Shown in pieces: positions 1-26,033 of a DNA stretch of 43,018 nucleotides (positions within the stretch are counted from its first letter, which is position 1; the number at the start of each line of letters is the position of its first letter). The stretch lies in assembly GCA_918241715.1 (NCBI GenBank), contig CAKJYB010000014.1:1-43018 (forward strand), read 5' to 3'. This DNA is from Clostridiales bacterium (lineage in GTDB: Bacteria; Bacillota; Clostridia; Christensenellales; UBA1242). The notes below the pieces were generated by a model. That model saw nothing but the letters and a program-made list of their open reading frames with translations. It made no database searches and had not been told where the DNA came from. Made by a program: the position numbers and the translations under genes.

Positions 1-63
1 ATATTGATTTTTTAATTCCGTATTTAATTTTTTGTAATTTTTTTGCTTATTTTTCCAAAGATT

Positions 64-888
64 TTATCTTTCAAAGTTTGCCCATTTGGGAAGTTTCTTA
101 AATGTTTTTCCGTCCAATCCGTCAACGTCAACTTTTCCAAATTTCATCATAAAGCAAGCAAGTTTTTGCTTTCTTTCTTGAAATTTTTTGTTGTCAGAGT
201 TCTTTCCATACTTGCCATCTCCAATAATTGGATGCCCCAAATATGCCAGATGCGCCCTGATTTGATGGGTCTTTCCTGTCAAAAGTTCAATTTGAAGCAC
301 AGAGCTCTCTTTTCCACTCTTTATTGTCCTTACTATCATTTTTATTAAAACGGAATTTGGCACTTTGTTTTGAAAAATCTTTACATAAGAGTTTTCTGCA
401 TCTTTCAACAAATAGGCTTGAAACTCCTTGTCTTTTGCAATAAATTCTCCCACCACTTCAGTCAAATAAAACTTATGAACGTTTCCGTTTTTAAATCCGG
501 ATTCAATTTTCTTGGCATTTTCTTGGTTTTTTGCATAAACCATAACACCTTCCGTGTTTCTGTCAAGTCTGTGGACGGCAATTGCGTTTTTTAAAACGCT
601 TTCTATCCCCTTGTCTCCTTCAGACTCAATTCCTGCATTTTTGTAAATGACATAGACATCTTTGTTTTCAAACAAAATTTCATATTTCTTGTCCAACATG
701 TCGTCCGAATAGAAAAACACAATGTTGTCGCCTTCTTCAAGCCACACATTTTCTTTTGTCGCTTTGCCGTTTACTTTTACATCTTTGTTTCTAAGCATTT
801 TGCTTACATCGACAAAACTAAAACCAAAATCTTGCAGAAAATTTACGATTTTCTTTCTTTTTTCTACTATTATCTCTTTTTTATTCAT
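64..888 (-). CDS. RluA-family pseudouridine synthase with N-terminal S4-like segment
   Basis: ORF 64..927. Motifs HRLDRNTEG (catalytic Asp loop) and GKTHQIRAHL are typical of RluA-type pseudouridine synthases. Start placed at ATG 888 (MNKKEII...) because ATG 927 would overlap the divergent yabP start. Neither candidate has a clear SD. Confidence 0.8.
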   Translation of the reverse strand: MNKKEIIVEKRKKIVNFLQDFGFSFVDVSKMLRNKDVKVNGKATKENVWLEEGDNIVFFYSDDMLDKKYEILFENKDVYVIYKNAGIESEGDKGIESVLKNAIAVHRLDRNTEGVMVYAKNQENAKKIESGFKNGNVHKFYLTEVVGEFIAKDKEFQAYLLKDAENSYVKIFQNKVPNSVLIKMIVRTIKSGKESSVLQIELLTGKTHQIRAHLAYLGHPIIGDGKYGKNSDNKKFQERKQKLACFMMKFGKVDVDGLDGKTFKKLPKWANFER

Positions 889-917
889 AAAGTAATTATA
901 ACTTAAAGGAGAATAAT

Positions 918-1166
918 ATGCAATCAATCTATCTTGAAGACAGAAAAAAGCTTGTAATCACGGGCGCAACAAAAATAATCTCTTCAACAGAAACACAGGC
1001 TGTTGTAGAACTATCACAAGAAACTTTGATTGTTTCGGGAGCTGATTTGGAAATAACCAAACTCAACCTTGAAAACAACGAAGTAAGTTTTTCCGGAACT
1101 ATCAACAATATAAAGTTTTCTCAAAAAGCAGAAAAGAAGAGTCTTTTTAAAAGGATCTTCAAATGA
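918..1166 (+). CDS. yabP: Sporulation protein YabP
   Basis: 82 aa. The pattern LEDRKKLVITGATKI...LEITKLNLENNEVSFSGTI matches the YabP family as I recall it. SD AAAGGAG lies upstream. ATGA overlap with the next ORF, as in yabP-yabQ pairs. Confidence 0.75.
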   Translation: MQSIYLEDRKKLVITGATKIISSTETQAVVELSQETLIVSGADLEITKLNLENNEVSFSGTINNIKFSQKAEKKSLFKRIFK

Positions 1167-1516
1167 TATTGTATGAAACACAAACTCAGCCACAAGTCTC
1201 TTTGTTGTTTGTTCTTTTTGGCTTTTTGTGTGGCTTTGTTTTTGATTTAAAAAACATATTAACCATAAAAAATAAAGGCCCGTTTTTGTCCCATTTTTAC
1301 GAATTTGTGGCTTCTTTGTTTTTGTTTTTTACGTTTTATTTTTTAAATTTAAAAGCAAATTTTGGTTCCGTACGCAATTTTTCTTTTATCATGTTCTTTT
1401 TGTCGTTCTTTCTTCAGCGTTTTTTGATAACAAATTTTGTTGCAAAACCACTTTCAAAGTGCTACAATAAATTTAGGTCAAAAAGAGATGAAAAGAAAAT
1501 GGTGGAAAAATCTTAG
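1163..1516 (+). CDS. yabQ: YabQ-like small polytopic membrane protein (spore cortex biosynthesis family)
   Basis: 117 aa hydrophobic protein translationally coupled (ATGA) to yabP. The call rests on position and hydrophobicity, not on strong motifs. Confidence 0.5.
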   Translation: MILYETQTQPQVSLLFVLFGFLCGFVFDLKNILTIKNKGPFLSHFYEFVASLFLFFTFYFLNLKANFGSVRNFSFIMFFLSFFLQRFLITNFVAKPLSKCYNKFRSKRDEKKMVEKS

Positions 1517-1712
1517 TGCGTTTGAGCTTGTTGCTATTGTTTCAATAGTCTTTTTAACCATTGTGGTTGTAATCACAGCCATTGTTATTGCAAACAAAAA
1601 ACAAAAAATTGACGAAATGGAAGAAAAAAACAAAGAAGTTCAAATAGATTCTTCCCAAACATTTTCTCAGGAAGACAACTTCATATCTCAAATATATAAT
1701 CAGCTTCAATAA
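1488..1712 (+). CDS. Small bitopic membrane protein (occupies the divIC position after yabP-yabQ)
   Basis: Start set to the internal ATG (MKRKWWKNLS...). One TM helix followed by a charged helical tail (KKQKIDEMEEKNKE). Shorter than typical DivIC/FtsB. Assignment is positional only. Confidence 0.3.
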   Translation: MKRKWWKNLSAFELVAIVSIVFLTIVVVITAIVIANKKQKIDEMEEKNKEVQIDSSQTFSQEDNFISQIYNQLQ

Positions 1713-2371
1713 AACAGGCTGATTATTTTTGTTATATACTTATTATATAGTGTTGTAGAAATCTTGCCACTTTGAACAAAAGACTGCAAGCTTTCTGACA
1801 ATGTAAAATTTGCAATTGCAGTCAAGACGACAAACAACACAAAAAACATTACAACGCCTTTAAACAGCCCAAAAACACCACCCATAAATCTATTTTTTGT
1901 TGATATTCCAAGTTTTTTTATCAAAAAATTTGCAGTCCGGTTTAAAATTTTCAGAATCAGCGACGAAACAAAAAACAAAAATATAAAAGAAACCACCTTG
2001 AAAAACAAAATTGATAATGTTGGCGAAAGAATTGCCCCTGCAGTCAAACTTCCGTCAAACTCTATGTTTTTTAAAAGTCTCTCTATAACAACTCCAAACA
2101 ACTTTCCAAACTTTGTTGGAACGATTGCATCAAAAAGTTCCGTCATTGTGGAAAACTTCCCACTTACAACCCCATTTATCAAGTTTGTAAGAAATCTCTG
2201 TACCCCGGCACCAAACAGATTGTTTCCCACCTGTGCAAACCTTCCACAAAAGTAGTATGCAACAAAAAAGGATATTACCACGCCTGCCACAGAAAAAATC
2301 ATTGAAACAAAACCTTTTTTCATTCCAACAAAAAAATATATGACAACAAATCCAAGCAAAACATAGTCCAC
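1706..2371 (-). CDS. cvpA: CvpA-family membrane protein
   Basis: 221 aa polytopic protein. N-terminus MDYVLLGFVVIYFFVGMKKGFV and overall hydrophobic layout resemble the colicin V production protein family. Confidence 0.6.
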   Translation of the reverse strand: MDYVLLGFVVIYFFVGMKKGFVSMIFSVAGVVISFFVAYYFCGRFAQVGNNLFGAGVQRFLTNLINGVVSGKFSTMTELFDAIVPTKFGKLFGVVIERLLKNIEFDGSLTAGAILSPTLSILFFKVVSFIFLFFVSSLILKILNRTANFLIKKLGISTKNRFMGGVFGLFKGVVMFFVLFVVLTAIANFTLSESLQSFVQSGKISTTLYNKYITKIISLFY

Positions 2372-2405
2372 GCTTAAATTTTTGTCATATATCTATATAA
2401 TAATA

Positions 2406-2430
2406 CAAAAAAAACACTTGCGTGGCTTTT
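2406..2430 (-). terminator. Weak candidate terminator after the 7-gene operon
   Basis: Minus strand reads GCCAC-GCAA-GTG followed by a T8 run. The stem is only 3-4 bp, so support is weak. Confidence 0.25.
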
Positions 2431-5400
2431 TTATTTTAATGTAGGAAGTTTTGTAAGGTCGTTTTCATCTATGTCCCAAATCTTATTGTCAAAACCAAAA
2501 ATCAGTTTGTATCCATTGATATTTTTTTCGCAAGTATTTACGCTTACATAACCGTTTGTGTTGTCTATTCCAATTACTTCAATATCTTTTGTCGTATAGC
2601 AATTAAGCACATTTCCACGGGTTTCTCCAACAACTCCAGCCACAACAAAACCTTCTGTATCAGAAATTGAAACGTCAGAATAACAATGATTTATTCTTTT
2701 TTTTATTTCGCCATTCAAATACTCTCCAAACAGCCCAGAAAGAACTCCTTTCGTTTGTTTTGAAGTTTCGTTTGTTATATTTCCTTTTGAATAGTTGTTT
2801 TCAGCCCCGACAAACGCTTGTCCAATCATGGCACCAACAATAACTTCGTCTGCCGAACCATCTAAATTGAAATTTACAACAGATTGATTTCTTTCAATCG
2901 AAATTGAATCTCCATTTTCGGCAATTCCAACAAGTCCACCCATAACCAAGCTTGCATTGTTTGAAATTGAAACAAAATTTGTGTTGTTTGTTATGTTTTT
3001 TTCGATTTTTGATTTTTCTAAAGCTACGGCCACAGCACCACCAAAAGTGGTCTTGTTTTTTGAAATGTTTAATCTAAAGTCTGCAGCGCCGACATTCTTA
3101 ATCATTTCTCCTTCGTTTTTAGAAACAAATCCACCAATCAGTGCGTTTTGGTCGGTATTTATCTCAATATTTCCAGAAATGCTGCAATTTTCAATTCTTC
3201 CGGTGTTGTAAAGGGCAATTCCACCAAACATTTTTACGTTGTTGTACGTTGCGTCTTCCAAAAGAATGATAAGGTTTCTTATTATTCCTGAATTTGTTTT
3301 CAATAAAGAATATTCTCCCTTGTCTCCAACAAGTTTAACCCCAACAAGACAATGTCCGTTTCCGTTTAATGTTCCACCAAAATTGCTTAGTTTCCACTTT
3401 TTCCCTTCAAGGTCAATATCTTCTTCCAAAACAATCTCATAATAGTTTGAATTTTTCATGTAAGTCTGAAGATCTTTTGCTGAAGCAACCCCTATTTTTG
3501 TTTTAAGAAAATAGAAATCAACAACAAACATTGCCAAATTTACAACAGAAAGACACATCAAAACTATGCATGCGGCTTTCCATTTTCTTGTCATTTTTTT
3601 CTTTAAAACACAATACAAAATCAGGCTTATGATTCCAACCATAATGTTGTAGAGAAGAACGCCTAAAACAACTCTGTCAGAAAAATATTTCAAAACTAGT
3701 TTTGCGTTGACGCTGATAAACGTCAAAAAGACAATTCCCATCACACTTGGAACGATTTCCAAAAGCCAAAACAAAAGAGATCTCCAAAATCTCCAATGGC
3801 TTCTTTTTTCCATTCTGTCAATATATGTTTTTTCTTCTCTTTTCTTTTTTATTCTTCTGTCAACAGTGTCGCCCGAAACACCTTTAAGTCCACCACTTTT
3901 TTCCGTCAAAGCAATAACGCTTATTGAAGACTCCAAAGACAAGTCCAAAAGTTCAAGTCTTTCAAAAATCCTTACAAAAAGACTTTTATAGTCGTCAAAA
4001 GTTGAAATCGAATCTAAATTTTGAAGATAATTTTCAAAAGGTGCAAGTTGAAGTTTAAAGTAATTTATTCCCCTTAAATACGTCTTTTCGTCAGTTTTTT
4101 GCATATCAAGCAAAATTCTGTTGTTTCGATTTAAAAAGTCTGTAAGTTTTGTTTTGAGTTCCTTTTTGTCAATGGTCTCTGGTCTGATAGACACTTTTTC
4201 GCCAGAATAAAGGTGCGCTTTGCTTATGATAGCCGCATATTTTTCTGTCTGCTCTTCATTTGCAAGGTTTAAAAGCGTTCCCCATTCTGCCATTTGGGCA
4301 ACATCGACATTTGATGCAATAAGTTCGGCATCAGATTTACAATGAGCCTTTGCTTTGATAAGCATCCAATAAAGTTCGGCCTTTGCTTCCGTTTTTATTA
4401 TGGCAATTGAGATGTATTTTTCAGCAATTTTGAAAAATCCCATTTCTTCAAGTTTTTCAATGATAACTTTAAGAATTTCAACAAGTTTTTCTTTGTCTGT
4501 TATATAAGCCAGATAAAAATCAATTTGCTTTTGCACTTTTTCAGTGTCCATAAAGGCAAGTGGCAACGCCATGTTTACAACGGCATTTACAAACTGCACT
4601 CTTGTAGGTTCGTCCAAAAATTTTAAAGACTTTTCAACTTCTTCTCTGTCTCTATAGTTTAATTTGTCTTCATTTGTTTTGAAGTGGCTTAAAAGCATGG
4701 CAAAATTGCTTTGTTCATGCCCCATGTCAATCTCAAGAACTTTTTGATAGTATTCCTGATTTCCACTATACTGAGCAAGCATAAAATAGAATTCGGCAAA
4801 TCTGTCAACTTCGTCTTTTCTGAAACATCTTAAAACCTTGTCAATGAGTTCTTGGCTCTGTGTTTCTATTGCCTTGTCTTCGGCTTTTTTGATAAATTCG
4901 TCTCTCATAGGAGAAGTGTATTGAGCCAAATACAACAAAAACGCATTATAGTATTCTTCACTGTCAAGACTGATAATAAGTTTTTCCCAGTTGTCAATAA
5001 TCATTTCTGCCAAATCTTTTGAAGCGTATTTCAAAATCTTGTCAATTCTGTCTTTGTCAGAAAAGTTTCCAATGCTTTGGAAAAACTCTCCAGCAGTATG
5101 AACCTTTTTGTCGCACAACATATCTGCAAAGAGAAGTTCGGCGCTGTTTTCGTCTTTTGCAAGCTCTTCATTTATCACTTTTTTTGCTGTTTGAAAGTCA
5201 GAGTTTTTCAGACACAAGAAAATCCATCTAATTCTGTTTGCTTCACTAGTTTCCATGTTTTCAACTTCATAGTGCCCAAGCTCTACAGGATTTATGGCGT
5301 CGTCTATGTTGAAATATTCTTTCTTGTCTGGCGTAACTTTTTTGACATCAATTGTTTCAATCTTTGCCACTTCTTTTACGCCATCTTTGATTGTTTTGTC

Positions 5401-6246
5401 AACTTTTGATGTGATATCTTGCAAAAATGAAGTTGCGTTTAAATCAACAAAACTTTTGCAAAATTTCAAATCGTCTGGAAGATTGTTCTCCGTCAAATCG
5501 TTAAGCGCAATAATAAAACTTTTTGAATATTTTTTTCTTTGGTTTATGAAGTAAGAATATCTGTCAAAAACGTGCTTGTGTTCTGGATCAAAAAACTCTT
5601 TCTTGCTGTTTGAAATCAAAACAAGAGCATTTGACGTAGATAAAGCATGGAAAGTTGTCTCTTCTCTTTCTTTTACATCATTTACAAAATAGGTTTTATA
5701 TCCAAGGCTTTCAAGTTCGGCAATCGCCCTGTCAACCCTTTCGTCTTCGTTGTTTTTGCTGTATTCTGTTGCACACAAAACAACATCATATTTTTCTTTC
5801 TTGTCCAGATTTTTATAGTTTTCGCATATTTTTTCAATACGCTTTTCGATTTCGTTGTATTCAGCAAGAGTTTCTGGTGGAGAATTTTTCATTGCATACT
5901 GAAAGTCAGAATCGTCTTCCAGCGAACACACTTCGCCAAAAAATCTTGGATATTTTCTTGCTCCACGCTTGTTGTTGTAAACAATAATCTTATGTTTTGC
6001 CAGCGCCTTGCCAAAATGTGCTTCGTATGAAAGTGGATACAAAGTTAAAATTTTTTCAAACTCTTTTACTGCCGTTTCAAACTTGAAAGCACGGAGTTTT
6101 TCGTATGCTGCAACAATCAAAAAGTCTTCTTCTTTTGAAGATTGTTCGTCCACATAGAGAGTCCCACAAAACATGCATTTAACCATGTTTTGCCCAACAA
6201 CAGCATATCTCCTTCCACCACAATTTTTGCAAACGCGTTCTTTCAT
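2431..6246 (-). CDS. Multidomain membrane protein: N-terminal Zn-ribbon, TPR-like module, TIR-like flavodoxin-fold domain, long helical region, 3 TM helices, C-terminal GLUG-repeat domain
   Basis: 1271 aa. CKNCG...CMFCG at aa 6-28. YDVVLCAT...ALVLISNS beta-alpha-beta pattern at aa ~152-255. Three hydrophobic helices at aa ~820-913. Repeated GG(I/L/F)(A/V)..N.G.I.N motifs (FGGIALYNTGRIENC, IGGFVSKNEGEMIKN, MGGLVGIAENGDSI, VAGVVGETRGNVLNC) at aa ~955-1225 are typical of GLUG motif domains. Start is 2 nt after the upstream stop. Confidence 0.85.
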   Translation of the reverse strand: MKERVCKNCGGRRYAVVGQNMVKCMFCGTLYVDEQSSKEEDFLIVAAYEKLRAFKFETAVKEFEKILTLYPLSYEAHFGKALAKHKIIVYNNKRGARKYPRFFGEVCSLEDDSDFQYAMKNSPPETLAEYNEIEKRIEKICENYKNLDKKEKYDVVLCATEYSKNNEDERVDRAIAELESLGYKTYFVNDVKEREETTFHALSTSNALVLISNSKKEFFDPEHKHVFDRYSYFINQRKKYSKSFIIALNDLTENNLPDDLKFCKSFVDLNATSFLQDITSKVDKTIKDGVKEVAKIETIDVKKVTPDKKEYFNIDDAINPVELGHYEVENMETSEANRIRWIFLCLKNSDFQTAKKVINEELAKDENSAELLFADMLCDKKVHTAGEFFQSIGNFSDKDRIDKILKYASKDLAEMIIDNWEKLIISLDSEEYYNAFLLYLAQYTSPMRDEFIKKAEDKAIETQSQELIDKVLRCFRKDEVDRFAEFYFMLAQYSGNQEYYQKVLEIDMGHEQSNFAMLLSHFKTNEDKLNYRDREEVEKSLKFLDEPTRVQFVNAVVNMALPLAFMDTEKVQKQIDFYLAYITDKEKLVEILKVIIEKLEEMGFFKIAEKYISIAIIKTEAKAELYWMLIKAKAHCKSDAELIASNVDVAQMAEWGTLLNLANEEQTEKYAAIISKAHLYSGEKVSIRPETIDKKELKTKLTDFLNRNNRILLDMQKTDEKTYLRGINYFKLQLAPFENYLQNLDSISTFDDYKSLFVRIFERLELLDLSLESSISVIALTEKSGGLKGVSGDTVDRRIKKKREEKTYIDRMEKRSHWRFWRSLLFWLLEIVPSVMGIVFLTFISVNAKLVLKYFSDRVVLGVLLYNIMVGIISLILYCVLKKKMTRKWKAACIVLMCLSVVNLAMFVVDFYFLKTKIGVASAKDLQTYMKNSNYYEIVLEEDIDLEGKKWKLSNFGGTLNGNGHCLVGVKLVGDKGEYSLLKTNSGIIRNLIILLEDATYNNVKMFGGIALYNTGRIENCSISGNIEINTDQNALIGGFVSKNEGEMIKNVGAADFRLNISKNKTTFGGAVAVALEKSKIEKNITNNTNFVSISNNASLVMGGLVGIAENGDSISIERNQSVVNFNLDGSADEVIVGAMIGQAFVGAENNYSKGNITNETSKQTKGVLSGLFGEYLNGEIKKRINHCYSDVSISDTEGFVVAGVVGETRGNVLNCYTTKDIEVIGIDNTNGYVSVNTCEKNINGYKLIFGFDNKIWDIDENDLTKLPTLK

Positions 6247-6248
6247 TT

Positions 6249-7391
6249 CTATCCTTGTTTCTTTTTGTTTTGTTTTATTTGATTTCCAATTTCTTCGTTG
6301 TAAGCGTCAAAGCGTTCTATTTCTTTCTTTGTTACGCTTGGTGGCATAACAGCCAAAATATCGTCAAAATCTTTGTTTGTAACTTTTACAATTGTGTCTG
6401 TTGCAATTGCCTTTAAAAGTGGTTCGTCTTTTGCTCTATCGCAAAGTTCTTCAATGTCAGCACCACTATAATTTTCTGTTTTTTCAACCAAATCTTCAAT
6501 GCTAAAATCGTCTGCAACAGGAACACCTTTCATGTTTTTCCTAAGCATAAATTCTCTTGCAGGAGCATCTGGAAGTGGCAAATAAATTTTTTGAGAAAAT
6601 CTTCCAGAACGTGTTGCGGCAGAGTCAATATCCCAAGGTCTGTTTGTTGCTCCAAGAAGAAGCAAGTTTTGGTTTCTTCCAGCAAACCCGTCTATCTGTT
6701 GCAAAAATTCGTTGACACGCTTGTCGTTGTGCGTGTCAACTCCACGTGCACTCAAAAGGTTGTCCATTTCGTCAATAAAAATGATTGCTCTGTCTTGCTT
6801 GTTTGCTTCTGTAAACAAAGCATTTATATTCTTTTCACTATCCCCAACCCATTTGCTTACAATGTCAGAGCCCTTGACAGCATAAAACTTTGCACCAACT
6901 TCATTTGCAATTGCCTTTGCTATCATGGTCTTTCCTGTGCCCGGTGGGCCATACAAAAGAACACCACCACCAGATTTTTTGTTGTAAACTTTGTATTTGT
7001 CAGGATATTTGATTGGATTGATCATTCTGATTGTGATGGCTTTTTTGACGTCATCAAGTCCAGCAACATCAGCAAAGGTGATGTTTGGCACTTCTGCTGC
7101 TTGCCACTTTTTGAGATCTTCATCTTCTTCCTGATTTGCAGTTGTAGGTTTGTCTGTTTTTACTGGCTTTTTGTCAAGGTTTTCGGTCAATCTGACAAGT
7201 CTTCTTGCCCTTTCCATTCTTGCTTCTTTAAGTTTTCCGGTGCTCTGTTTTGCCATGAGCATCATTGTTTCACTTGCAAGAAGAAAATTTCTCCTTGCTA
7301 AAGCAGAATTACCCTTTTCTTGCGCCTGTTTTGCTTTTGCCATATAAAGGTCAAAAGTTTCGGACAAAACTGAAATACTTGGTTCTTTCAC
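6249..7391 (-). CDS. Vps4-like AAA+ ATPase with N-terminal MIT-like three-helix region
   Basis: 380 aa, GTG start. Walker A GPPGTGKT (6927..6950), Walker B IIFIDEMD. Pore-loop and flanking signature SKWVGDSEK resembles Vps4 SKWMGESEK. ATNRPWDIDSA...GRFSQKIYLPLPD and C-terminal DFDDIL..PPSV...ERF..Y..E.G resemble Vps4 and the meiotic-clade AAA proteins. The N-terminal 75 aa are helical and MIT-like. Confidence 0.8.
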   Translation of the reverse strand: MKEPSISVLSETFDLYMAKAKQAQEKGNSALARRNFLLASETMMLMAKQSTGKLKEARMERARRLVRLTENLDKKPVKTDKPTTANQEEDEDLKKWQAAEVPNITFADVAGLDDVKKAITIRMINPIKYPDKYKVYNKKSGGGVLLYGPPGTGKTMIAKAIANEVGAKFYAVKGSDIVSKWVGDSEKNINALFTEANKQDRAIIFIDEMDNLLSARGVDTHNDKRVNEFLQQIDGFAGRNQNLLLLGATNRPWDIDSAATRSGRFSQKIYLPLPDAPAREFMLRKNMKGVPVADDFSIEDLVEKTENYSGADIEELCDRAKDEPLLKAIATDTIVKVTNKDFDDILAVMPPSVTKKEIERFDAYNEEIGNQIKQNKKKQG

Positions 7392-7405
7392 TTATCTTCT
7401 CTCTT

Positions 7406-7999
7406 TTATTTTGCTTCTGATTCGATTTTCTTTTTCAATTCGTCAATTTCTTTTTCGATGTTTTCGTCTGAAAGTCCGTCCAAACTTGCTTGTTCTTCAA
7501 TAAACTTTTCAAACTCTTCGTCTGTCATCTTGCCGGTCTTGTCTTTTCCAGCATTATAGAATGTTTCTTGGCTCATTTCCATAAAGTTGTCAATTTGGTC
7601 TGTTTGTGTTTCTACGGCAGCCATTGCGTTTTCAAACTGAGCCTGAATTTTTGCAAACTCTTTTGCATCAGCAAGTTTTGTCATTTCTCTGCTTATATCA
7701 CTCATTCCCCTTAAGAATTCTGATGTCATCATTGTAACATCTCTCATTTGGGCTGTGATTTCAAAGTTTAAAAGCATTTCTTGTGCTCTTCTTTGTTGTT
7801 GAACGGTCATCTTATAACCACTGAGAGCAAGGTTGTATTGTGCTTCCAAATCTTTTTCTTTTGCTCTTTTGGCTGCATCAATAAACACCTGTTTTTGATC
7901 TTCCAAACGATTGATTTGTTTGTTCATTGTGTTGATTGTTCTTTTAATCAACATCTTCTTTTCCAATTCTTTTTGTTGTTTTGATTTAAAAAGTCCCAT
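7406..7999 (-). CDS. ESCRT-III superfamily (Snf7/CHMP/PspA-like) protein, paralogue 1
   Basis: 197 aa all-helical. N-terminus MGLFKSKQQKE resembles CHMP3/PspA N-terminal amphipathic motifs. Basic N-terminal half and acidic C-terminal half. Segment MRDVTMMTSEFLRGMSDISREMTKL...FAKIQAQFENAM parallels CHMP alpha3-alpha4 regions. SD GGAGG lies 9 nt upstream, inside the preceding gene end. Confidence 0.65.
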   Translation of the reverse strand: MGLFKSKQQKELEKKMLIKRTINTMNKQINRLEDQKQVFIDAAKRAKEKDLEAQYNLALSGYKMTVQQQRRAQEMLLNFEITAQMRDVTMMTSEFLRGMSDISREMTKLADAKEFAKIQAQFENAMAAVETQTDQIDNFMEMSQETFYNAGKDKTGKMTDEEFEKFIEEQASLDGLSDENIEKEIDELKKKIESEAK

Positions 8000-8003
8000 T
8001 TTT

Positions 8004-8618
8004 TTATTCCTCCATCTTCATTTTTTTCTTTTTTGGTGCTTCTTTTTCTGCCTCTTCAACACCTATATCGTTTTCGTCTGCAAGTTGGTTTTCTTTTTCA
8101 AACATCAAAAGCACATCTTCTTCTGTCTTCCCAACTCCATAAATTGGTTCGCTTACGTCATAAGCAGCTCTAACTTCGTTGAAAAGTTCGTCAGCATTTG
8201 TAAGCACATCTTCACTTGAAATTCTGGTTTCAAGAGCTTTGTTTAGAAATCTTGCCAAACCTTTTTGGTCTTTCAAAAGGTTGCTAAGTGGAACCTTTGT
8301 TTGCGTCTTGAAAAATGTGTTGCTGTCAAACGCATCTTTAAGTTTGTTCATAAGACGAATGTTGTAAAGCAAATACATTCCCCTTTCCATTGACGTTTGC
8401 TTTTCTTCATTTAAGTTTGCAATCTTTTTTGCATACAAAAGTTGAAGATCTTTGTTTCTCTCTTTCTTTCCCTTTTCCATAAGAGCATCAATTTCTTTTA
8501 TCTTTTGGTAAATCTCTGCTTCTATTGTTCTTTCTTGCCTTTCAAGTTCGCAAATAGAGTTTACCAAATCTTCTCTCTTAAGTCTTTTGTATTTGTTTCT
8601 TCTAAATGGCCACCACAT
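8004..8618 (-). CDS. ESCRT-III superfamily-like coiled-coil protein, paralogue 2
   Basis: Start set to ATG 8618 (MWWPFRRNKYK...) because SD AAGGAG lies 6 nt upstream. The TTG at 8636 in the ORF track is less likely. Basic aromatic N-terminus, long helical hairpin-like heptads, acidic C-terminal tail (EEDVLLMFEKENQLADENDIGVEEAEKE). Confidence 0.55.
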   Translation of the reverse strand: MWWPFRRNKYKRLKREDLVNSICELERQERTIEAEIYQKIKEIDALMEKGKKERNKDLQLLYAKKIANLNEEKQTSMERGMYLLYNIRLMNKLKDAFDSNTFFKTQTKVPLSNLLKDQKGLARFLNKALETRISSEDVLTNADELFNEVRAAYDVSEPIYGVGKTEEDVLLMFEKENQLADENDIGVEEAEKEAPKKKKMKMEE

Positions 8619-8629
8619 AATTTTCTCCT

Positions 8630-8992
8630 TTAACAATTTTCTCCTTGATTTACTGCATAGATGCGTTCAAGAAGTTCGTCATAATATTTTTTTTGCGTTT
8701 CTCCAGCAAACTCCATGGCATGTTGGTATTCATTCAAAAACACCACTTCTTTATACCTGATTGGGTTTGAATACAATTCACTTTCACTTCTTATCTGACA
8801 CTTCTCAAGCATCAATCCCCAATAGGCATCTGCACACTTGCTGTCATATTGCAACGCAAGCATAAAATTCAACTTTGCTTGTTCAAACAACTCTTCACTC
8901 AAATTTATATAACCAAGTTTAAGTTCCTTGATAACTTTCGTCCTTTCTTCTTCGTTTAAATCTTCGGACGCACAATAGACTCTCCCGTTCAC
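8630..8992 (-). CDS. Small TPR-like helical protein, paralogous to aa ~40-140 of the 1271-aa protein
   Basis: 120 aa, GTG start in a GTGA overlap with the upstream stop. Shares the pattern A(Y/H)(W/F)G..L.K..I ... (Y/F)Q(H/Y)AM(E/K)....T...Y.E...RI with the N-terminal module of ORF 2431..6246. Confidence 0.6.
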   Translation of the reverse strand: MNGRVYCASEDLNEEERTKVIKELKLGYINLSEELFEQAKLNFMLALQYDSKCADAYWGLMLEKCQIRSESELYSNPIRYKEVVFLNEYQHAMEFAGETQKKYYDELLERIYAVNQGENC

Positions 8993-9399
8993 TCTTCTAT
9001 CTCTTCCTTCTTTCTTTGCACGATATATGCTTCTACTTCTTCCAAAAGCCTAAGGCAAGTTTCTTGTGTGTTGTCTTTTGCTGTTGCAATTTTCAAGTCG
9101 TCAAGTCTTGCTGCAAGTTTTGTGTCAACTTCTTGTGCTCTTGAATTTGTTGTTGGATTGAAAAACTTTATGTTGTCTTTTACTTCAACAAGTCTGTTGC
9201 AAAGTTCGTCATTTCCGTTTGCGTAAACCAAAATGCTTTCTACATTTGCAACCATGTTTTCAATTGTCTTTTTGTTTTTTAAAACTCCACGACTTCCAAC
9301 ATCTTCGCCTTTTGCATGCTTTGGTCTATATTCTCTGTAAATGAAATAAACCGAAACGCCAAGTATTGCAAGTCCTACAAACAAATAAAAAATCCACAT
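8989..9399 (-). CDS. Bitopic membrane protein with cytoplasmic helical domain (unknown family)
   Basis: 136 aa. N-terminal TM helix MWIFYLFVGLAILGVSVYFIY, then a charged helical region. SD AAGGAG lies 8 nt upstream and overlaps the upstream stop. Confidence 0.6.
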   Translation of the reverse strand: MWIFYLFVGLAILGVSVYFIYREYRPKHAKGEDVGSRGVLKNKKTIENMVANVESILVYANGNDELCNRLVEVKDNIKFFNPTTNSRAQEVDTKLAARLDDLKIATAKDNTQETCLRLLEEVEAYIVQRKKEEIEE

Positions 9400-9411: not shown

Positions 9412-10254
9412 TTACAATTTTGCTCCACAATTTAAGCAAAATTTTGATTCTTCAGAATTTTCCGTTCCACATTCTTTGCAAATGTTTTTCCTAGAAACTT
9501 TTGCTCCACAATTGTCGCAGAATCTTGAAGTTGGTTTTAAAACGTTTCCACATTCTCTGCACACAAATTGTTCTTCTTTTGTCTCTGTTTGTGCTATGTT
9601 TTTCTTCGCCTTTGAAAGTCTTGTAAAGTCGTTTTCGTCAATCACAACATTTGCAATATTGAAAGTGTAAACTGCAATTCCATAATCTCCCATAAGTCTT
9701 TGATTTATCTTGCTCAAAACTTTTGCAGAAATTTCTCTTTTCTTTGTTGTAAGTTGGTTGAACGGAATTTTGTTTTCCTGCGCATATTCAACAACTTCAT
9801 TTTCCAAAACAGAAACGACATTTATCACAAGTCTTGATTGGAGATCTTCGCTGGTCATGTTTTCGTTTGCACCAACAAGATACAAATAGCACTTTCTTGG
9901 GTCTCCAATTTGAACATCAAAGTTTCCACTCATTCCAACTTTATAGTTGTCGTCAAGTGTTGGGTCATAGACCATAAACATTTGAGATGTCCCCCAAAGA
10001 AGTTTAAGTTTTGCCGTCTTTGACATAAAAAGCACTTCAAGTTTTACGTCAAGCTCTGTCCTAAGGTCAACAAACCTGCTTATCAAATATCTTCCTGAAG
10101 AAAGCGTTTGAAGCATTTGCCCATCTTTAACAAGAATTGCGTTGTGCGTTTCTGGCACAATAAGCGTCAATTTTGGACTGATTGGATTTTCAAGTTTTCT
10201 TCTTGTAAAAAGCTGGTCGTTGTTCCCTTCAAATGTGATTACGTTTTGTTCCAT
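9412..10254 (-). CDS. SPFH/band-7-like protein of the YdjI type with two C-terminal Zn-ribbons
   Basis: 280 aa. N-terminal region (LTLIVPETHNAILVKDGQMLQTLSSGRYLI) resembles the YdjI-like stomatin/prohibitin-related family that carries C-terminal Zn-ribbons. C-terminus has CRECG...FCDNCG and CKECG...FCLNCG. Confidence 0.65.
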   Translation of the reverse strand: MEQNVITFEGNNDQLFTRRKLENPISPKLTLIVPETHNAILVKDGQMLQTLSSGRYLISRFVDLRTELDVKLEVLFMSKTAKLKLLWGTSQMFMVYDPTLDDNYKVGMSGNFDVQIGDPRKCYLYLVGANENMTSEDLQSRLVINVVSVLENEVVEYAQENKIPFNQLTTKKREISAKVLSKINQRLMGDYGIAVYTFNIANVVIDENDFTRLSKAKKNIAQTETKEEQFVCRECGNVLKPTSRFCDNCGAKVSRKNICKECGTENSEESKFCLNCGAKL

Positions 10255-10296: not shown

Positions 10297-10326
10297 ATAT
10301 TAGCACACTCACTTTTCAAAAGTCAA
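10297..10326 (-). promoter_or_regulatory. Candidate sigma-A promoter of the 7-gene operon
   Basis: Minus strand: -35 TTGACT (10321..10326), 18-nt spacer ending in TGC, -10 TAATAT (10297..10302). Confidence 0.4.
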
Positions 10327-11273: not shown

Positions 11274-11350
11274 GGGGGTGTGGCTCAGTTGGCTAGAGCA
11301 CCTGCCCTGCAAGCAGGGGGTCACCGGTTCGAATCCGGTCATCTCCACCA
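11274..11350 (+). tRNA. tRNA-Ala (anticodon UGC), CCA encoded
   Basis: Cloverleaf folded by hand: acceptor GGGGGTG/CATCTCC with a G3:U70 pair and A73. D stem GCTC/GAGC. Anticodon stem CCTGC/GCAGG with loop CCTGCAA. T arm ACCGG-TTCGAAT-CCGGT. 3' CCA present. Confidence 0.85.
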
Positions 11351-12949: not shown

Positions 12950-13609
12950 TTATTCTGCCTTCTTTTTTCTTGATTTCTTTTCTTTTGGTTCTTCTTTTGG
13001 CTCTTCGTGGCAGTGGCATTCTTCTCCACATTCACAAACCATTTCGTTTTGTTTTTTAAGTTCTGCCAAAATCTGTGTCAAAAGTTCTTCTTGTGTTGGT
13101 GCTACAGGTGCTGGTGCTGGAGCATTCTTTGCACGGAGTTCTGCTGTTGCAGCCAAAACTGCCTTGCGATCTCTCATGTTTACACCTTGTGCACGAAGTT
13201 CTTTCTTTTCTTCTTTTGTTGGTCTTTCGCTTGCTGCTTTTGTTGCATAACCCTTTGCACTCATAACAAGTTTTATGATTGTAAAGAGAACAAATGCAAT
13301 AATCAAGAAGTCAATGACTGCTGTGATAAATGCACCCCAATCTATGTAAATACTCTTTTCAAGGTCAATCACTTTTACGCCATCAACTGTTGTGTAAACT
13401 CTCTTCAAGAATGTGTAAACAGCTTCAAGTCCATCTCCCCCAACAATAAGTGCAAGCACCCAGTTGATTATTGGTCTTATGATGTGGTTTGTAAATGCTG
13501 TAACAATTGCACTAAACGCACCACCGATGATAACACCAACAGCCAAATCAAGAATGTTGCCACGGCTTATAAATGCCTTAAATTCTGCAAAAAATCCTTT
13601 CTTTTTCAT
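12950..13609 (-). CDS. mscL: Large-conductance mechanosensitive channel MscL with extended C-terminus
   Basis: FKAFISRGNILDLAVGVIIGGAF... is the MscL TM1 signature. Start set to MKKKGFF (13609). C-terminal helix EELLTQILAELKKQN is followed by an extra Cys/His-rich, Lys-rich tail. Confidence 0.85.
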   Translation of the reverse strand: MKKKGFFAEFKAFISRGNILDLAVGVIIGGAFSAIVTAFTNHIIRPIINWVLALIVGGDGLEAVYTFLKRVYTTVDGVKVIDLEKSIYIDWGAFITAVIDFLIIAFVLFTIIKLVMSAKGYATKAASERPTKEEKKELRAQGVNMRDRKAVLAATAELRAKNAPAPAPVAPTQEELLTQILAELKKQNEMVCECGEECHCHEEPKEEPKEKKSRKKKAE

Positions 13610-13671
13610 TTCTATCTCCTTTCCTTTATATTTTAAAACACTCACGTTTGTTTTTGCAAATGTTTTTTTAG

Positions 13672-14153: not shown

Positions 14154-15251
14154 TTATTTCTTTATCTTTTCCCATGGAAATTCTTTTCTTCCAAAATGTC
14201 CAAAGCATGCCGTCTGTTTGTAAATTGGTTTCAAAAGCCCAAGTTCCTTGATTATGTTGTCTGGAGAAAAATCAAAATTTTCTGAAACATATTTGTCAAT
14301 TTCTTTCATTGGCTTTTTGTTTGTTCCAAAACATTCGACATACATGGAAACAGGGTCTTCCATGCCGATTGCATAACTCACTTGAATTTCGCACTTGTCA
14401 GCAAATCCGTGTGCAACAATATTTTTTGCAACATATCTTGCATAGTAAGCTGCGCTTCTGTCAACTTTTGTTGCATTTTTGCTTGAAAAACATCCACCAC
14501 CAACTCTGCCAACTCCACCATAGGTGTCAACAACAATCTTTCTTCCAACGCAACCACTATCTCCAAAACTGCCCCAGATTGTAAACTTTCCACTTGGGTT
14601 GATTATGTATTTTGTGTCTTTTGTGATGTAGTTTTTATATTCTTTCAAAACTGGCATCACAACATCTTCTTTGATTGTTTTTTGAATCTGTGCAAGTGTA
14701 AGTTTTGAGTCATGAGAAACGCTGATTAAAATCGTGTCAAAGCTTGTTGGTTTTTCGTCTTCATACACAACAGAGACTTGCCCCTTTGCGTCTGCAAAAT
14801 AAAGTTTGTGCTTTCTTCTGAAATCGTCATAACATTTCATAAGCTTGTGTGCAACCAAAATTGGAAGTGGCATAAACTCTTCTGTTTCATTTGTTGCATA
14901 ACCAAACACCATGCCTTGATCATTTGCACAAAGTTTTTGTTTTACAACTGCCTGATTGATGTCTGGGCTTTGTTCGCTGATTTCCTTTACAATGGAAAAT
15001 TCGTTTTTATACCCAACTTCTTTAAGCACTTTTCTTGCAATTTTGTCATAGTCAATTTTGGCCTTTGTTGTCGCTTCCCCATAAATGAAAAGTTTGTCAT
15101 TTTTTATTGCGCACTCAACTGCCATTTGGCTGTTTTTGTCTTGCTTTAGCGCTTCGTCCAAAATTGCGTCTGCAATAGTGTCGCAAGTTTTGTCTGGGTG
15201 GCCAATGTTTACGCTTTCACTTGTGATAATTTTTCTTTCTTTTGTCTTCAT
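14154..15251 (-). CDS. metK: S-adenosylmethionine synthetase
   Basis: SESVNIGHPDKTCD, GDSGCVGRKIVVDTYGG and FSSKNATKVDRSAAY match MetK signatures. SD AGGAGAG upstream. Lies downstream of a SAM riboswitch. Confidence 0.9.
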   Translation of the reverse strand: MKTKERKIITSESVNIGHPDKTCDTIADAILDEALKQDKNSQMAVECAIKNDKLFIYGEATTKAKIDYDKIARKVLKEVGYKNEFSIVKEISEQSPDINQAVVKQKLCANDQGMVFGYATNETEEFMPLPILVAHKLMKCYDDFRRKHKLYFADAKGQVSVVYEDEKPTSFDTILISVSHDSKLTLAQIQKTIKEDVVMPVLKEYKNYITKDTKYIINPSGKFTIWGSFGDSGCVGRKIVVDTYGGVGRVGGGCFSSKNATKVDRSAAYYARYVAKNIVAHGFADKCEIQVSYAIGMEDPVSMYVECFGTNKKPMKEIDKYVSENFDFSPDNIIKELGLLKPIYKQTACFGHFGRKEFPWEKIKK

Positions 15252-15495: not shown

Positions 15496-15620
15496 AAAAA
15501 ACCCATCGTCTGATGGGTTTAAAAGATCTTTTATCCCATCGCTCAGCCTTTAGCACCTTGCAAATGCAGGTTGCTGTGTGGTCATCGGGGCTGTCCCTGG
15601 CACACTCTTTATGGTTCTGC
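15496..15620 (-). promoter_or_regulatory. SAM-I (S-box) clan riboswitch with intrinsic terminator
   Basis: Minus strand: CCATAAAGAGTGTGCCAGGGACAGCCCCGATGACCACACAGCAACCTGCATTTGCAAGGTGCTAAAGGCTGAGCGATGG contains the conserved S-box elements AAGAG, AGGGA, GATGA (kink-turn), GCAACC and GGTGCTAAA. Terminator AAACCCATC-AGAC-GATGGGTTT plus T run at 15496..15520. GATGGG occurs in both the P1 3' strand and the terminator 3' arm, giving the antiterminator alternative. Confidence 0.75.
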
Positions 15621-23796: not shown

Positions 23797-23873
23797 TGGT
23801 GCTTTCGGCAGGATTTGAACCCGCAACTTCTTGGTTCGAAGCCAAGCACTCTATCCAGTTGAGTTACGAAAGC
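23797..23873 (-). tRNA. tRNA-Arg (anticodon UCG), CCA encoded
   Basis: Minus strand cloverleaf: acceptor GCTTTCG/CGAAAGC. Anticodon stem CTTGG/CCAAG with loop CTTCGAA. T arm GCGGG-TTCAAAT-CCTGC. A73 and CCA present. Confidence 0.85.
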
Positions 23874-24023: not shown

Positions 24024-26033
24024 ATGGCAAAAAGCAAAGCAAAATCTTTTATCTTACGTCTAATTATTCTTGCCGTTGTAGGCTACGTTGTCGGAGCTGC
24101 CCTTGCTTACTTTGTTGACAATGAAGTAAAAGGTGATATTGTAAAATGTCTTACAATTGACTGGGCATACTTCGGTGCTGCTGCAGGTGCAGGACTTGCT
24201 CTTCTTTCTCTTTTCTTTAAAAAACCAAAGAAGAAAATGGGTGCAGAAACAACAGGTAAAACTTCTTCCGGTGAAGAAATGGATTTGTCCTACGATGCAA
24301 AATGGTTGCTCCCAGAAGACATTAAAGACCAATTTGGTTTGATTGCAACCACATGGTCCGGGCTTCCTTCTCTTAAAAACACTGGTATTGTGTTTAGAAG
24401 TTGCATGGAAGGTGGAAAATACCATATCGCAATGAAAGACGAATATCACTGCTTGGTTATTGGTACCACCGGTTCTGGTAAAACAAGTATCGTGTTTGTT
24501 CCAACAATCAGAATTTATGCACACTCTGGAGAAAAACCATGTATGGTTATCTCAGACCCTAAGGGCGAACTTTACACAAAGACAAGCAGAATTTTGGAAG
24601 ACGAAGGATACAGAGTTATAAAATTTGACTTGCGTGATCCATTCTCTTCAACAAGATGGAACCCTATGGAACACGCCTTTGAACTTTATCACAAAGGTAA
24701 AAACTGCAAACACAACGTAAAACGTTGCACAAACGGAGCAAGACCAGAAAGCGTTGGATACAAAACAATTCCTGGTGAAAGATATGGCGAAGAATGGTTT
24801 GGTTTTGAAGGCGTTGCTTACCCAACAGAAGACGCTGTAAGAGTTGCCGTTCTAAGTCAAGAACAAATCTATTGCGACTTGGCACAAAGCGAACTTAAAG
24901 AAATCTGCAACACGGTTGCACCAAAAACAAAAGGCTCCAACGACCCAACATGGGAAGAAGGTGCACAAGACTTCCTTTATGGTTGTGCCCTTGCCATGCT
25001 TGAAGATAGTATGGACCCAGAACTTGGAATGACAAAAGATAAATTCAACTTCTACAACCTTTACAAAATTGCAACATTCCGTGATCCAGATGCTGACGCA
25101 CCATTTGAAACGGTCAGAAAATATCTTCTTCAAGGACGTGACGAAGCAACAAGTGTTGTTCCAAACCTTACATCAGCTGTTATTAACAACGCACCAAATA
25201 CAACAAAATCATATATCGGTGTTTTGAATGGTAAAATTTCTTTCATGAATGATATTGGTATTTCTTACCTTACTTCAGAAAGCGACATAAACTTTGACAC
25301 CTTCACCGACAAACCTACAGCAATTTACCTTGTTATTCCAGATGATAGAGAAGAACGTTATACCCTTGCAACATTGTGCATCTCTCAACTTTACAAACGT
25401 CTTGTTGACAAAGCAAACTCTTATCATGGTGGAAAACTTCCAAAGCACGTTTACTTCATTTTGGACGAATTCGGAAACATGCCACCAATTCCAAAATTTG
25501 ACAGCATGATTACCGTTTCCCGTGGTAGAAACATTTTATATGAAGCCGTTGTTCAGTCTTACACGCAGATTGAAACAAAATATGGCGCAGATGCTGCAAA
25601 AACCATTATCGGAAACTTCAACTCTCAAATTTATCTTGGAACAGACGACCAAAAGACAAGAGACGACTTCTCCAAGATGTGTGGTGAAGTTCAGTTGATT
25701 CACGAAGAAAAGAGCACGTCCAAAAACGAAAAGGACGACAAAGACTCCAAGACAACAAACACAAGCGTTCAAAGAACAACCCGTGCCCTTATCACTTCTT
25801 ACGAACTTGGACAAATTCCATTCGGTACAATGGTTGTAAAACTCTTCAGATACAACCCAATGAAACTTAAAGGAACAAGAAATGACCAAGTTCCATTCTT
25901 CTATAAGAAAGAAGCAGAACAAACGATTGGCGCAATGAAGAGCCTTGATACAGCAAAGGTTTACTATGATATCAAAATGAGAAATAAAAAGGTTATAAAG
26001 CCTTCTTCTTCAGGGTTTGGAAGTTTCTTCTAG
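24024..26033 (+). CDS. VirD4/TraG-family type IV coupling protein-like ATPase
   Basis: 669 aa. Two N-terminal TM helices, Walker A GTTGSGKT, VISDPKGELY, Walker B-region YFILDEFGNMPPIP and SRGRNILYEAVVQSYTQIETKYG, all typical of T4CP (TraG/TraD/VirD4) proteins. SD AAGGAG upstream. Confidence 0.75.
   Translation: MAKSKAKSFILRLIILAVVGYVVGAALAYFVDNEVKGDIVKCLTIDWAYFGAAAGAGLALLSLFFKKPKKKMGAETTGKTSSGEEMDLSYDAKWLLPEDIKDQFGLIATTWSGLPSLKNTGIVFRSCMEGGKYHIAMKDEYHCLVIGTTGSGKTSIVFVPTIRIYAHSGEKPCMVISDPKGELYTKTSRILEDEGYRVIKFDLRDPFSSTRWNPMEHAFELYHKGKNCKHNVKRCTNGARPESVGYKTIPGERYGEEWFGFEGVAYPTEDAVRVAVLSQEQIYCDLAQSELKEICNTVAPKTKGSNDPTWEEGAQDFLYGCALAMLEDSMDPELGMTKDKFNFYNLYKIATFRDPDADAPFETVRKYLLQGRDEATSVVPNLTSAVINNAPNTTKSYIGVLNGKISFMNDIGISYLTSESDINFDTFTDKPTAIYLVIPDDREERYTLATLCISQLYKRLVDKANSYHGGKLPKHVYFILDEFGNMPPIPKFDSMITVSRGRNILYEAVVQSYTQIETKYGADAAKTIIGNFNSQIYLGTDDQKTRDDFSKMCGEVQLIHEEKSTSKNEKDDKDSKTTNTSVQRTTRALITSYELGQIPFGTMVVKLFRYNPMKLKGTRNDQVPFFYKKEAEQTIGAMKSLDTAKVYYDIKMRNKKVIKPSSSGFGSFF

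Follow-up and report, generated by a model that had tools for sequence, protein, structure and literature searches.

The question raised by this locus is whether bacteria may possess a motor dedicated to ESCRT-III polymers. The window, i.e. the complete stretch of 43,018 nucleotides (nt) analysed here (contig CAKJYB010000014.1 of a Clostridiales bacterium, assembly GCA_918241715.1), contains an open reading frame (ORF) at positions 6249..7391 that the original prediction, made from the sequence alone, described as an AAA+ ATPase with Vps4/meiotic-clade signatures and an MIT-like N-terminus. Recent reviews deny bacteria such a pairing; according to one from 2025, 'a Vps4-like ATPase ... appears absent in bacteria' (PMC7619361), and bacterial ESCRT-III biology has consequently been framed around PspA/Vipp1, without a dedicated disassembly motor. 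Our results argue, with fairly high confidence, for a single-ring AAA+ unfoldase built like Vps4 and archaeal CdvC, co-transcribed with a probable ESCRT-III substrate, which it would remodel at the expense of ATP. Two features were put forward by Makarova et al. (2024) for the recognition of Vps4, namely an N-terminal MIT domain and an ESCRT-III gene in the neighbourhood. Both were encountered here, the former by predicted fold and profile, the latter as a gene whose pairing with the ATPase gene is kept in Clostridia and Planctomycetota loci.

The ORF proved to be a genuine gene located on the minus strand (no strand had been given originally). It encodes 380 amino acids (aa) from a GTG start with a Vps4-like architecture, and all motifs quoted in the original prediction occur in its translation, an observation confirmed far beyond chance. 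A Shine-Dalgarno-like purine-rich stretch (AAGAGAGAAG) was found about 5-14 nt 5' of the GTG, and homologues begin with the identical residues MKEPSI.... The N-terminal segment (AKAKQAQEKGNSALARRNF...), whose first 70 residues are rich in Ala, Leu and Lys, precedes an acidic linker (NQEEDEDLKK). Then come Walker A (GPPGTGKT, aa 148-155), the pore-loop segment (SKWVGDSEK, aa 179-187), Walker B (IIFIDEMD, aa 203-210) and aa 248-276 (ATNRPWDIDSAATRSGRFSQKIYLPLPD, i.e. ATNRPWDIDSA followed by GRFSQKIYLPLPD), and the C-terminal motif DFDDILAVMPPSVTKKEIERFDAYNEEIG forms a helix of pattern DF..IL....PSV......F..Y...IG. The catalytic residues are intact: G148-T155, pore loop 1 K180-W181-V182-G183, D207/E208, sensor-1 N250 and the arginine fingers R261 and R264 within the segment R-S-G-R-F. 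Pfam recognised one AAA domain, as anticipated (E = 1.1e-41), together with AAA_lid_3 (E = 1.8e-9); the AAA+ module with its lid (6402..7094, minus strand) was delimited by Pfam, invariant columns and motif comparison with reference AAA+ proteins.

The N-terminus was examined by several approaches. Neither MIT (PF04212) nor any other Pfam family matched aa 1-111, even at E<=10, and with no family in this region the MIT claim could not be decided by Pfam. With 20 homologues as input, AlphaFold2 (AF2) modelled aa 1-90 as a confident three-helix bundle followed by a disordered acidic tail; means of the predicted local distance difference test (pLDDT) over 10-residue blocks were 89-98 over aa 1-70 and above 94 over aa 11-70. 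Foldseek comparison of this model with 350,542 PDB chains returned MIT domains as best matches: ranks 1 and 2 were the MIT domain of S. acidocaldarius CdvC bound to CdvB (2w2u) and rank 4 that of S. solfataricus Vps4 (2v6y), followed by those of spartin, VPS4A, VPS4B and yeast Vps4. For the VPS4A domain (1yxr), the TM-score was 0.72 and the root mean square deviation 2.1 Å. For a bundle of only 70 residues, weak Foldseek E-values are to be expected, and they ranged here from 0.02 to 0.8. At the profile level, 40 bacterial N-termini were compared with a reference in which eight archaeal CdvC-like N-termini, taken from metagenome loci, were aligned with those of yeast Vps4 and human VPS4B. The resulting hhalign match (96.4%, E = 1.1e-9, score 50) covered 73 columns, i.e. 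the entire domain, against scores of 18 for the reversed reference and at most 13 for 30 column shuffles. Since fold and sequence profile agree, aa 6-70 (7182..7376, minus strand; helices aa 6-25, 29-49 and 52-70) are best regarded as a true MIT domain, the Pfam miss notwithstanding. This part of the original prediction was therefore borne out, and the low-complexity acidic linker that it placed behind the domain was likewise recovered (aa 71-99, 7095..7181, minus strand): it is predicted to be disordered and is partly acidic, with pLDDT values below 50 at aa 78-90, and it varied in length and sequence among homologues.

The second feature was encountered only 14 nt upstream of the ATPase gene, where a gene on the same minus strand (7406..7999) encodes a 197-aa protein. 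Its N-terminus, MGLFKSK..., resembles that of CHMP3 (MGLFGK). Taken alone, this protein had no Pfam match, and all named proteins among the 528 close relatives found are annotated as 'hypothetical protein'. The AF2 model displayed the ESCRT-III pattern of helices (aa 7-48, 52-109, 112-151, 160-171 and 178-196) at a mean pLDDT of 58. Its top Foldseek matches were mostly ESCRT-III proteins (CHMP1B, Asgard ESCRT-IIIB, CHMP2A/3, CdvB, Vipp1 and Snf7), all with E-values above 0.1; given the low confidence of the model, the fold search is suggestive only. A hidden Markov model of the family gave chance-level matches only among PDB sequences, and hhalign comparisons with ESCRT-III based on shallow alignments (>80% identity) were insignificant, both for this protein (10%) and for the neighbouring 210-aa one (6%). 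Significance arose only after the addition of divergent homologues, obtained by scanning metagenome contigs with the ATPase alignment and running jackhmmer over the recovered loci. These homologues are encoded directly upstream of ATPases 36-41% identical to that of the window (L022, L024, L032, L035, L043 and others).

With this 20-sequence family, hhalign matched seven eukaryotic ESCRT-III sequences (confirmed against PDB) at 94.7% (E = 6.4e-8, score 56), collinearly over helices alpha1-alpha4, and inclusion of archaeal CdvB in the reference raised the match to 95.9% (E = 6.4e-9). The aligned span was 119-142 columns. Reversed references scored 16 and column shuffles at most 21.5, and two benchmarks run in the same set-up also remained below 56, i.e. 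eukaryotic A-type against B-type ESCRT-III (46) and PspA/Vipp1 against ESCRT-III (34.5). The best profiles were those of A-type proteins (Vps2/Vps24/CHMP1/CHMP3, 90%). The Pfam Snf7 model itself recognised family members, namely the homologue in L024 (E = 0.0085) and the neighbour in L030 (E = 6.5e-6). Searching with environmental members yielded 1111 proteins; those with names belong to Planctomycetota, Phycisphaerae and Brocadiae MAGs (metagenome-assembled genomes), and many carry a precomputed Snf7 match (PF03357). From these profile comparisons, the 197-aa gene is assigned to an ESCRT-III family of Snf7 type that had no earlier annotation, homologous to ESCRT-III/Snf7 over helices alpha1-alpha4. 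A PspA/Vipp1 identity for this family was also considered and ruled out (hhalign 0.6%).

The last helix of the 197-aa protein (aa 178-196, DENIEKEIDELKKKIE; 7412..7468, minus strand) is MIM1-like, as judged from the AF2 helix and a conserved pattern. Relatives displayed DIDAELEKLRKELE and AIDEGLAAVRKELG, and the tail pattern [DE]xxIxx x[LMI]xx[LIV][RK]K was kept in Clostridia and Planctomycetota homologues. It reproduces the MIM1 spacing (D/E)xxLxxRLxxL(K/R), as in Vps2 (DDDLQARLNTLKK; Vps2 sequence confirmed), except that the central Arg is replaced by Glu. A tail of this kind on an ESCRT-III protein of A-type character is also seen in the eukaryotic CHMP/Snf7 system, and by analogy the MIT domain of the ATPase would bind to it.

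The association of both genes extends well beyond the window. The operon order SPFH - 136 aa - (120 aa) - 204 aa - ESCRT-III - ATPase - 1271 aa was collinear in 11 related MAG loci (ATPase identity 75-81%) and its core was kept in four further ones (56-59%), which makes 15 Clostridia MAG loci altogether; it recurred in an estuarine locus (L022) where the ATPase is 39% identical. Two NCBI Planctomycetota MAGs displayed a Snf7-like gene directly followed by that of a 392-402-aa AAA protein with a matching N-terminal pattern. The ESCRT-III/MIT-AAA pair is a conserved arrangement in at least two distant phyla, Bacillota and Planctomycetota. In Planctomycetota loci L098 (8841..11842) and L100 (4421..8451), two large proteins (284-756 aa) that match no Pfam family are encoded after the pair, and in L098 it is preceded by helical proteins of 205-292 aa with no detectable ESCRT-III similarity.

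At the level of the ATPase itself, 7120 proteins matched at E<=1e-20 (90% clustering), a count that takes in other AAA+ families. The best 120 of these 7120 were full-length, 77-92% identical and derived from gut metagenomes and Clostridia MAGs; among the matches listed, the few named relatives belong to 'Clostridia bacterium' and 'Candidatus Caccovivens' MAGs. Many relatives (L012-L015; P0247, P0251, P0253, P0254 and others) displayed an additional C-terminal domain of about 100-130 aa, apparently beta-rich and mostly ending in G-[IL]-[EID]-[EDT]-x-[DNS]-[LFM]-G-[IVLF] (one variant differs), which is absent from the window ATPase. A database entry attributes a 62%-identical homologue (P0248) to the beetle Holotrichia oblita (KAI4453595.1, 140-kb contig), and its presence in that assembly is probably due to gut-bacterial contamination.

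Whether the ATPase is a Vps4 in the strict sense was addressed through profile scores and diagnostic motifs. The NCBIfam CdvC model (NF041006) aligned end to end (ATPase aa 8-367 against model positions 6-367 of 370) and gave 208.8 bits, compared with an equivalog cut-off of 650 bits and the 692 bits reached by a genuine CdvC from locus L068. The Cdc48 model scored slightly higher (221.5 bits, D2 part), FtsH and PAN models reached 189 and 188 bits, respectively, and the best PDB sequence matches were p97 D2 domains (about 200 bits). Vps4_C, expected from the original prediction, matched over its positions 28-61 of 61 at 20.3 bits with the whole protein, below the cut-off of 21.3, and at 22.6 bits with the C-terminus alone; among the matches listed, about half of the ATPase homologues have a precomputed PF09336 match. 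The C-terminal helix (aa 336-369; 6285..6386, minus strand), defined by profile and alignment, is Vps4_C-like and also resembles the end of p97 D2, since it aligns to p97 residues 710-739.

The motifs gave an equally mixed picture. The bacterial family has the SKW[VL]GE[SA]E pore loop and the N-x-P-W of CdvC, Vps4 and katanin, from which p97, PAN and FtsH deviate (M-W-F-G and N-R-P-D in Cdc48 versus K-W-V-G and N-R-P-W in the window), and to this extent the proposed parallel with Vps4 stood. On the other hand, p97 D2 also carries IYxPLPD and ends in a PSV...I..Y helix, a resemblance that had not been considered. The arginine fingers departed from the Vps4/meiotic state: the window ATPase displayed R-S-G-R-F (R-[SP]-G-R in all bacterial relatives), the state of Cdc48, PAN and FtsH, instead of the adjacent R-R, two residues shorter, found in every aligned CdvC (L063, L065 and L068), Vps4, katanin, spastin and ATAD1. 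For these comparisons, the eukaryotic, PAN and FtsH references were confirmed by near-identical full-length matches to PDB chains (about 2 bits per residue), those of p97 D1 and D2 were taken from PDB alignments, and all others were authentic metagenome loci.

These data raise the alternative of a generic Cdc48-like single-domain unfoldase, acting in quality control or membrane-protein extraction (e.g. of the 1271-aa protein encoded downstream) and unrelated to the upstream helical protein, its Vps4 resemblance reflecting only the shared ancestry of classical AAA+ modules. It draws on the p97 D2 matches in PDB, the highest raw similarity of the ATPase module, on the slight advantage of the Cdc48 model over the CdvC model, on the R-x-G-R-[FL] fingers and on the IYxPLPD and C-terminal motifs shared with the D2 domains of Cdc48, p97 and VAT. 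Yet Cdc48 proteins carry a tandem pair of AAA+ domains and an N domain folded as a double-psi beta-barrel, whereas the window protein has a single AAA domain and an N-terminus homologous to MIT. Moreover, the pore loop and N-x-P-W are those of CdvC/Vps4, the ESCRT-III gene lies directly upstream in both Bacillota and Planctomycetota, and trees of the AAA module put the family outside all Cdc48 sequences sampled (16 D1 and 16 D2). We consider this explanation improbable.

Two such trees were constructed by neighbour-joining (Kimura-corrected distances, 270-273 columns, 300 bootstraps), the second one including the additional Cdc48 D1 and D2 sequences; neither sampled euryarchaeal Vps4 clades. 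A clostridial core clade was recovered with bootstrap values of 96% in the first tree and 98% in the second, within a wider bacterial/environmental clade (79% and 65%, respectively). The latter grouped with CdvC/Vps4/meiotic proteins to the exclusion of Cdc48 D1/D2, PAN and FtsH (46% and 65%). In neither tree was the family nested in the Vps4/meiotic clade or in Cdc48 D2. The original placement inside the Vps4/meiotic clade is accordingly, and subject to revision, replaced by a separate bacterial clade which, with moderate support, appears as the sister group of CdvC/Vps4/katanin/spastin and not as a member. The earlier interpretation thus holds for architecture, MIT domain and function by analogy, and fails for strict clade membership. 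As judged from these trees, the clade would span gut Clostridia-like MAGs, Planctomycetota and other environmental lineages. NCBIfam searches on the flanking genes of L025, L030, L036 and L041 were uninformative for taxonomy, so that a few members of this 'bacterial' clade may be non-bacterial. Multi-domain Cdc48-like proteins crowded the ranking of the protein collection, as scores sum over domains, and the nearest single-domain outgroup was not revealed by it.

The closest known architecture is that of the archaeal CdvC/CdvB proteins of Thermoproteota and Nitrososphaeria. Both systems display an ATPase of about 370-400 aa made of MIT domain, linker, single AAA domain and C-terminal helix, without a large beta-domain, with the SKW-x-GE-x-E pore loop and N-x-P-W, MIT homology by profile and fold, and a gene immediately downstream of a Snf7-family gene. 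The latter order, ESCRT-III then ATPase, is that of cdvB-cdvC in L063, L065 and L068, and it would fit a recent horizontal transfer of a genuine archaeal cdvB-cdvC pair into gut Clostridia, e.g. from co-resident methanogens; Ravi et al. (2024; PMC11237479) read bacterial VPS4-like genes as transfers from archaea, and an SPFH/zinc-ribbon partner is also known from archaeal Meth_adaptin ESCRT loci (PMC11188069). Against such an event, the window ATPase is 31-32% identical to true CdvC (L068 and L063) versus 36-41% to Planctomycetota-type proteins, the bacterial sequences form a large clade of their own (65-79%), the family lacks the two-residue deletion in the second region of homology of all sampled CdvC/Vps4, and GC content and context are native. 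Further differences with the archaeal system are the low CdvC model score and the R-S-G-R-F fingers in place of R-R-F, the absence of CdvA from the window locus, the absence of a winged-helix domain from its ESCRT-III protein, the partners (SPFH/zinc-ribbon and large TPR/transmembrane/GLUG proteins) and the bacterial host. Recent acquisition is therefore quite unlikely; an ancient transfer may still have occurred, its donor being a stem archaeon or a lineage outside the present sampling.

Eukaryotic Vps4 (yeast Vps4, human VPS4A/B) likewise shares the architecture, the acidic linker and the pore loop (SKW[ML]GESEK against SKWVGDSEK in the window). It differs by its Vta1-binding beta-domain, which the window ATPase lacks, by the spacing of the arginine fingers and by its position in the Vps4/katanin/spastin clade, outside of which the window ATPase falls; moreover, the Pfam MIT model does not recognise the window N-terminus.

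Among bacteria, 'VPS4-like AAA+ ATPases' (e.g. ACB74714.1) were mentioned by Ravi et al. (mSystems, PMC11237479), who described loci in which snf7 is 'displaced' and also reported that some bacterial Snf7 homologues occur with a different, two-domain AAA+ protein. Likened by this published description, the window family probably belongs to the same broad family, and the 1271-aa protein encoded downstream of the window ATPase displays TPR-like repeats and three transmembrane segments. In contrast to a 'displaced' snf7, the window has a conserved, Pfam-unrecognised Snf7-type gene directly upstream. A full-text literature search returned no description of a bacterial operon combining Snf7 and MIT-AAA; new here is a Snf7-class ESCRT-III encoded together with an MIT-bearing AAA+ ATPase in bacteria.

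The ATPase cluster consists of seven tightly packed minus-strand genes (gaps of -4 to 14 nt). Immediately upstream of the 197-aa gene lies a second ESCRT-III-like candidate of about 204 aa starting at MWWPFRRNK (8004..8618, minus strand; the listed ORF starts at 8636 and has about 210 aa). Its hhalign comparison with ESCRT-III gave 31-49% (P = 2e-4 to 5e-4) with controls at 19 or below, its homologue in L022 begins with MGLFKRN, and a related ORF is located directly upstream of the ATPase in L041; on these grounds it is tentatively considered a probable second ESCRT-III. The 197-aa and 210-aa proteins gave no BLASTP alignment with each other and 1.5% in a profile-profile comparison, so that paralogy is not shown. 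No ESCRT-III signal was detected in the ORFs upstream of the ATPase in L019, L025, L036 and L047. The CHMP6 and Vps20 references were unconfirmed and served only for the 204-aa protein, the upstream ORFs and the Planctomycetota pair.

The next gene (8630..8992, minus strand) encodes a small helical, TPR-like protein of 120 aa with a faint TPR_8 match, related by jackhmmer to the N-terminal region of the 1271-aa membrane protein. It is present in L001-L011 and L018, with related matches in L022 and L025, and was not detected in L012-L015 by tblastn or with a blastp-built family. It is preceded by a gene for a 136-aa membrane protein (8989..9399, minus strand) with, by hydropathy, a transmembrane segment at aa 2-20 and a cytoplasmic helical tail, which is conserved in all 15 related loci. 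The first gene of the operon (9412..10254, minus strand) encodes a 280-aa SPFH protein of Band_7_1, YdjI/SamI type with a C-terminal double zinc ribbon (Band_7_1 7.8e-17, Zn_Ribbon_1 1.7e-14, DZR 2.6e-9). A weak candidate sigma-70-type promoter (TTGACT-18-TAATAT with TG; 10297..10326, minus strand), found by consensus scan only, precedes it and is itself preceded by a terminator-like hairpin (10688-10673). The last gene, directly downstream of that of the ATPase (2431..6246, minus strand), encodes the large 1271-aa membrane protein, which displayed an N-terminal zinc ribbon (CxxC pairs at aa 6 and 24), a helical/TPR-like cytoplasmic region, three transmembrane helices (aa ~828-909) and an extracytoplasmic GLUG domain (GG[FL]VG repeats), with faint Pfam matches to TPR_14 and GLUG. 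This gene was collinear with the operon in L001-L011 and L022; in L025, a protein of more than 2383 aa (3..7151), encoded ahead of the ATPase, is related to it.

The composition of the operon is reminiscent of the B. subtilis PspA-YdjGHI (SamGHI) membrane-stress operon, in which an ESCRT-III-superfamily protein is likewise associated with SPFH (Band_7_1), zinc-ribbon and small membrane proteins (PMC11188069; bioRxiv 10.64898/2026.02.06.704340). Yet the B. subtilis polymer is PspA and there is no ATPase, unlike the Snf7-type polymer and MIT-AAA protein of the window.

A role in anti-phage defence was also envisaged, the ATPase being part of an Iet-like or new type of system in which it senses or triggers an abortive response. 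PADLOC IetA models gave 132, 105 and 102 bits and the NCBIfam IteA_antiphage model 112 bits, and in related locus L025 the ATPase is preceded, instead of by an ESCRT-III gene, by a gene (7155..7973) for a RES-domain protein (PF08808, 3e-11). Since the IetA scores are well below those of the Cdc48, CdvC, FtsH and PAN models, they reflect general AAA+ (IetA/TRIP13) similarity only. No IetS-type protease is present, and the PADLOC models left all six remaining operon proteins unmatched. Finally, the operon resides among housekeeping genes (metK, nrdD, proS and mscL), and metK and mscL recur upstream of it in L001, L004-L006, L008 and L009 (mscL also in L011). A defence function is thus most unlikely.

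The window as a whole is ordinary chromosomal DNA of low GC content (~35%) with metK, nrdD, proS, mscL and tRNA genes. The operon is flanked by a gene for an MscL channel with a C-terminal extension of about 85 aa (12950..13645, minus strand) and, 60 nt downstream of its last gene, by one for a CvpA (colicin V production) family protein (1706..2371, minus strand); a CvpA-like gene and mscL occur near the operon in several related loci. An ordinary SAM (S-box) riboswitch (RF00162, 48.6 bits; 15533..15617, minus strand) lies upstream of metK (14154..15251, minus strand), and Rfam identified two tRNA genes (11274..11347, plus strand; 23800..23873, minus strand). Farther away, an ORF of 3974 aa (26096..38020, minus strand) without any Pfam family at E<=1e-4 adjoins a gene for a TraG/VirD4-type type IV secretion coupling protein (PF02534, 1.3e-49; 24024..26033, plus strand). 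This region may correspond to a conjugative-element or surface-protein locus.

Matched part by part with the Vps4 paradigm, this anatomy leads us to propose ATP-driven extraction of ESCRT-III from membrane filaments. The ESCRT-III protein would form polymers at the cytoplasmic membrane, in which the second helical protein of about 200 aa would probably take part. The SPFH/zinc-ribbon and single-pass proteins would form a membrane platform or recruiter (compare YdjI/SamI for PspA and the archaeal Meth_adaptin loci with SPFH) and the large zinc-ribbon/TPR/three-transmembrane/GLUG protein would provide a connection to the envelope; together, these proteins would position or regulate the polymer. 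The MIT domains of the ATPase would dock on exposed ESCRT-III C-terminal helices, and its hexamer would thread the subunits through the pore, extract them and thereby remodel or recycle the polymer, with membrane repair, vesiculation or scission as possible outcomes. The contact between MIT and MIM, the threading by a hexamer and the cellular role are inferred by analogy with the known systems. By the same analogy, the ATPase probably works like Vps4 and the locus is a probable bacterial variant of the ESCRT-III/Vps4 system.

Several observations weigh against this reading. The Pfam MIT model does not recognise the N-terminus, the model of the 197-aa protein is of low confidence with fold-search E-values all above 0.1, the second ESCRT-III assignment is weak, and the proposed MIT-MIM contact would involve a tail with Glu at the central Arg position. 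At the level of the ATPase module, the score on the CdvC model falls short of the equivalog cut-off and is slightly exceeded by that of Cdc48, p97 D2 provides the best PDB matches and the fingers are in the Cdc48 state, while the sister grouping with CdvC/Vps4 is supported by just 46-65% bootstrap in trees that were made by neighbour-joining, not maximum likelihood, and that contain no euryarchaeal Vps4. Considering all data, a Vps4-like unfoldase acting on its neighbour remains our favoured reading. The farther-reaching view, to which we give slightly less than even credence, is that of a genuine bacterial ESCRT-III/Vps4-type machine of gut Clostridia and Planctomycetota, whose ATPase would be a deep sister lineage to all Vps4/meiotic ATPases of archaea and eukaryotes that kept the ancestral Cdc48-type finger spacing.

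If that view is true, the system would be abundant in gut Clostridia (Christensenellaceae- and Caccovivens-like MAGs) and in Planctomycetota, and the textbook absence of Vps4-like ATPases and ESCRT systems from bacteria would be contradicted. The MIT-AAA/ESCRT-III partnership would then not be an invention within Archaea: it would either predate the split from bacteria or have been exchanged with bacteria before the Vps4 lineage gained its diagnostic deletion. Should the proposed mechanism hold, the ATP-driven remodelling of ESCRT-III could be studied in a tractable bacterial system, and the lineage could serve, much like an outgroup, to date the origins of Vps4 and the MIT-MIM interaction. 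The locus would also provide a function for hundreds of clusters (528 and 1111 matches) that are currently 'hypothetical' and mostly unrecognised by Pfam, and it would represent a new membrane-remodelling system in the abundant Clostridia of human and animal guts.

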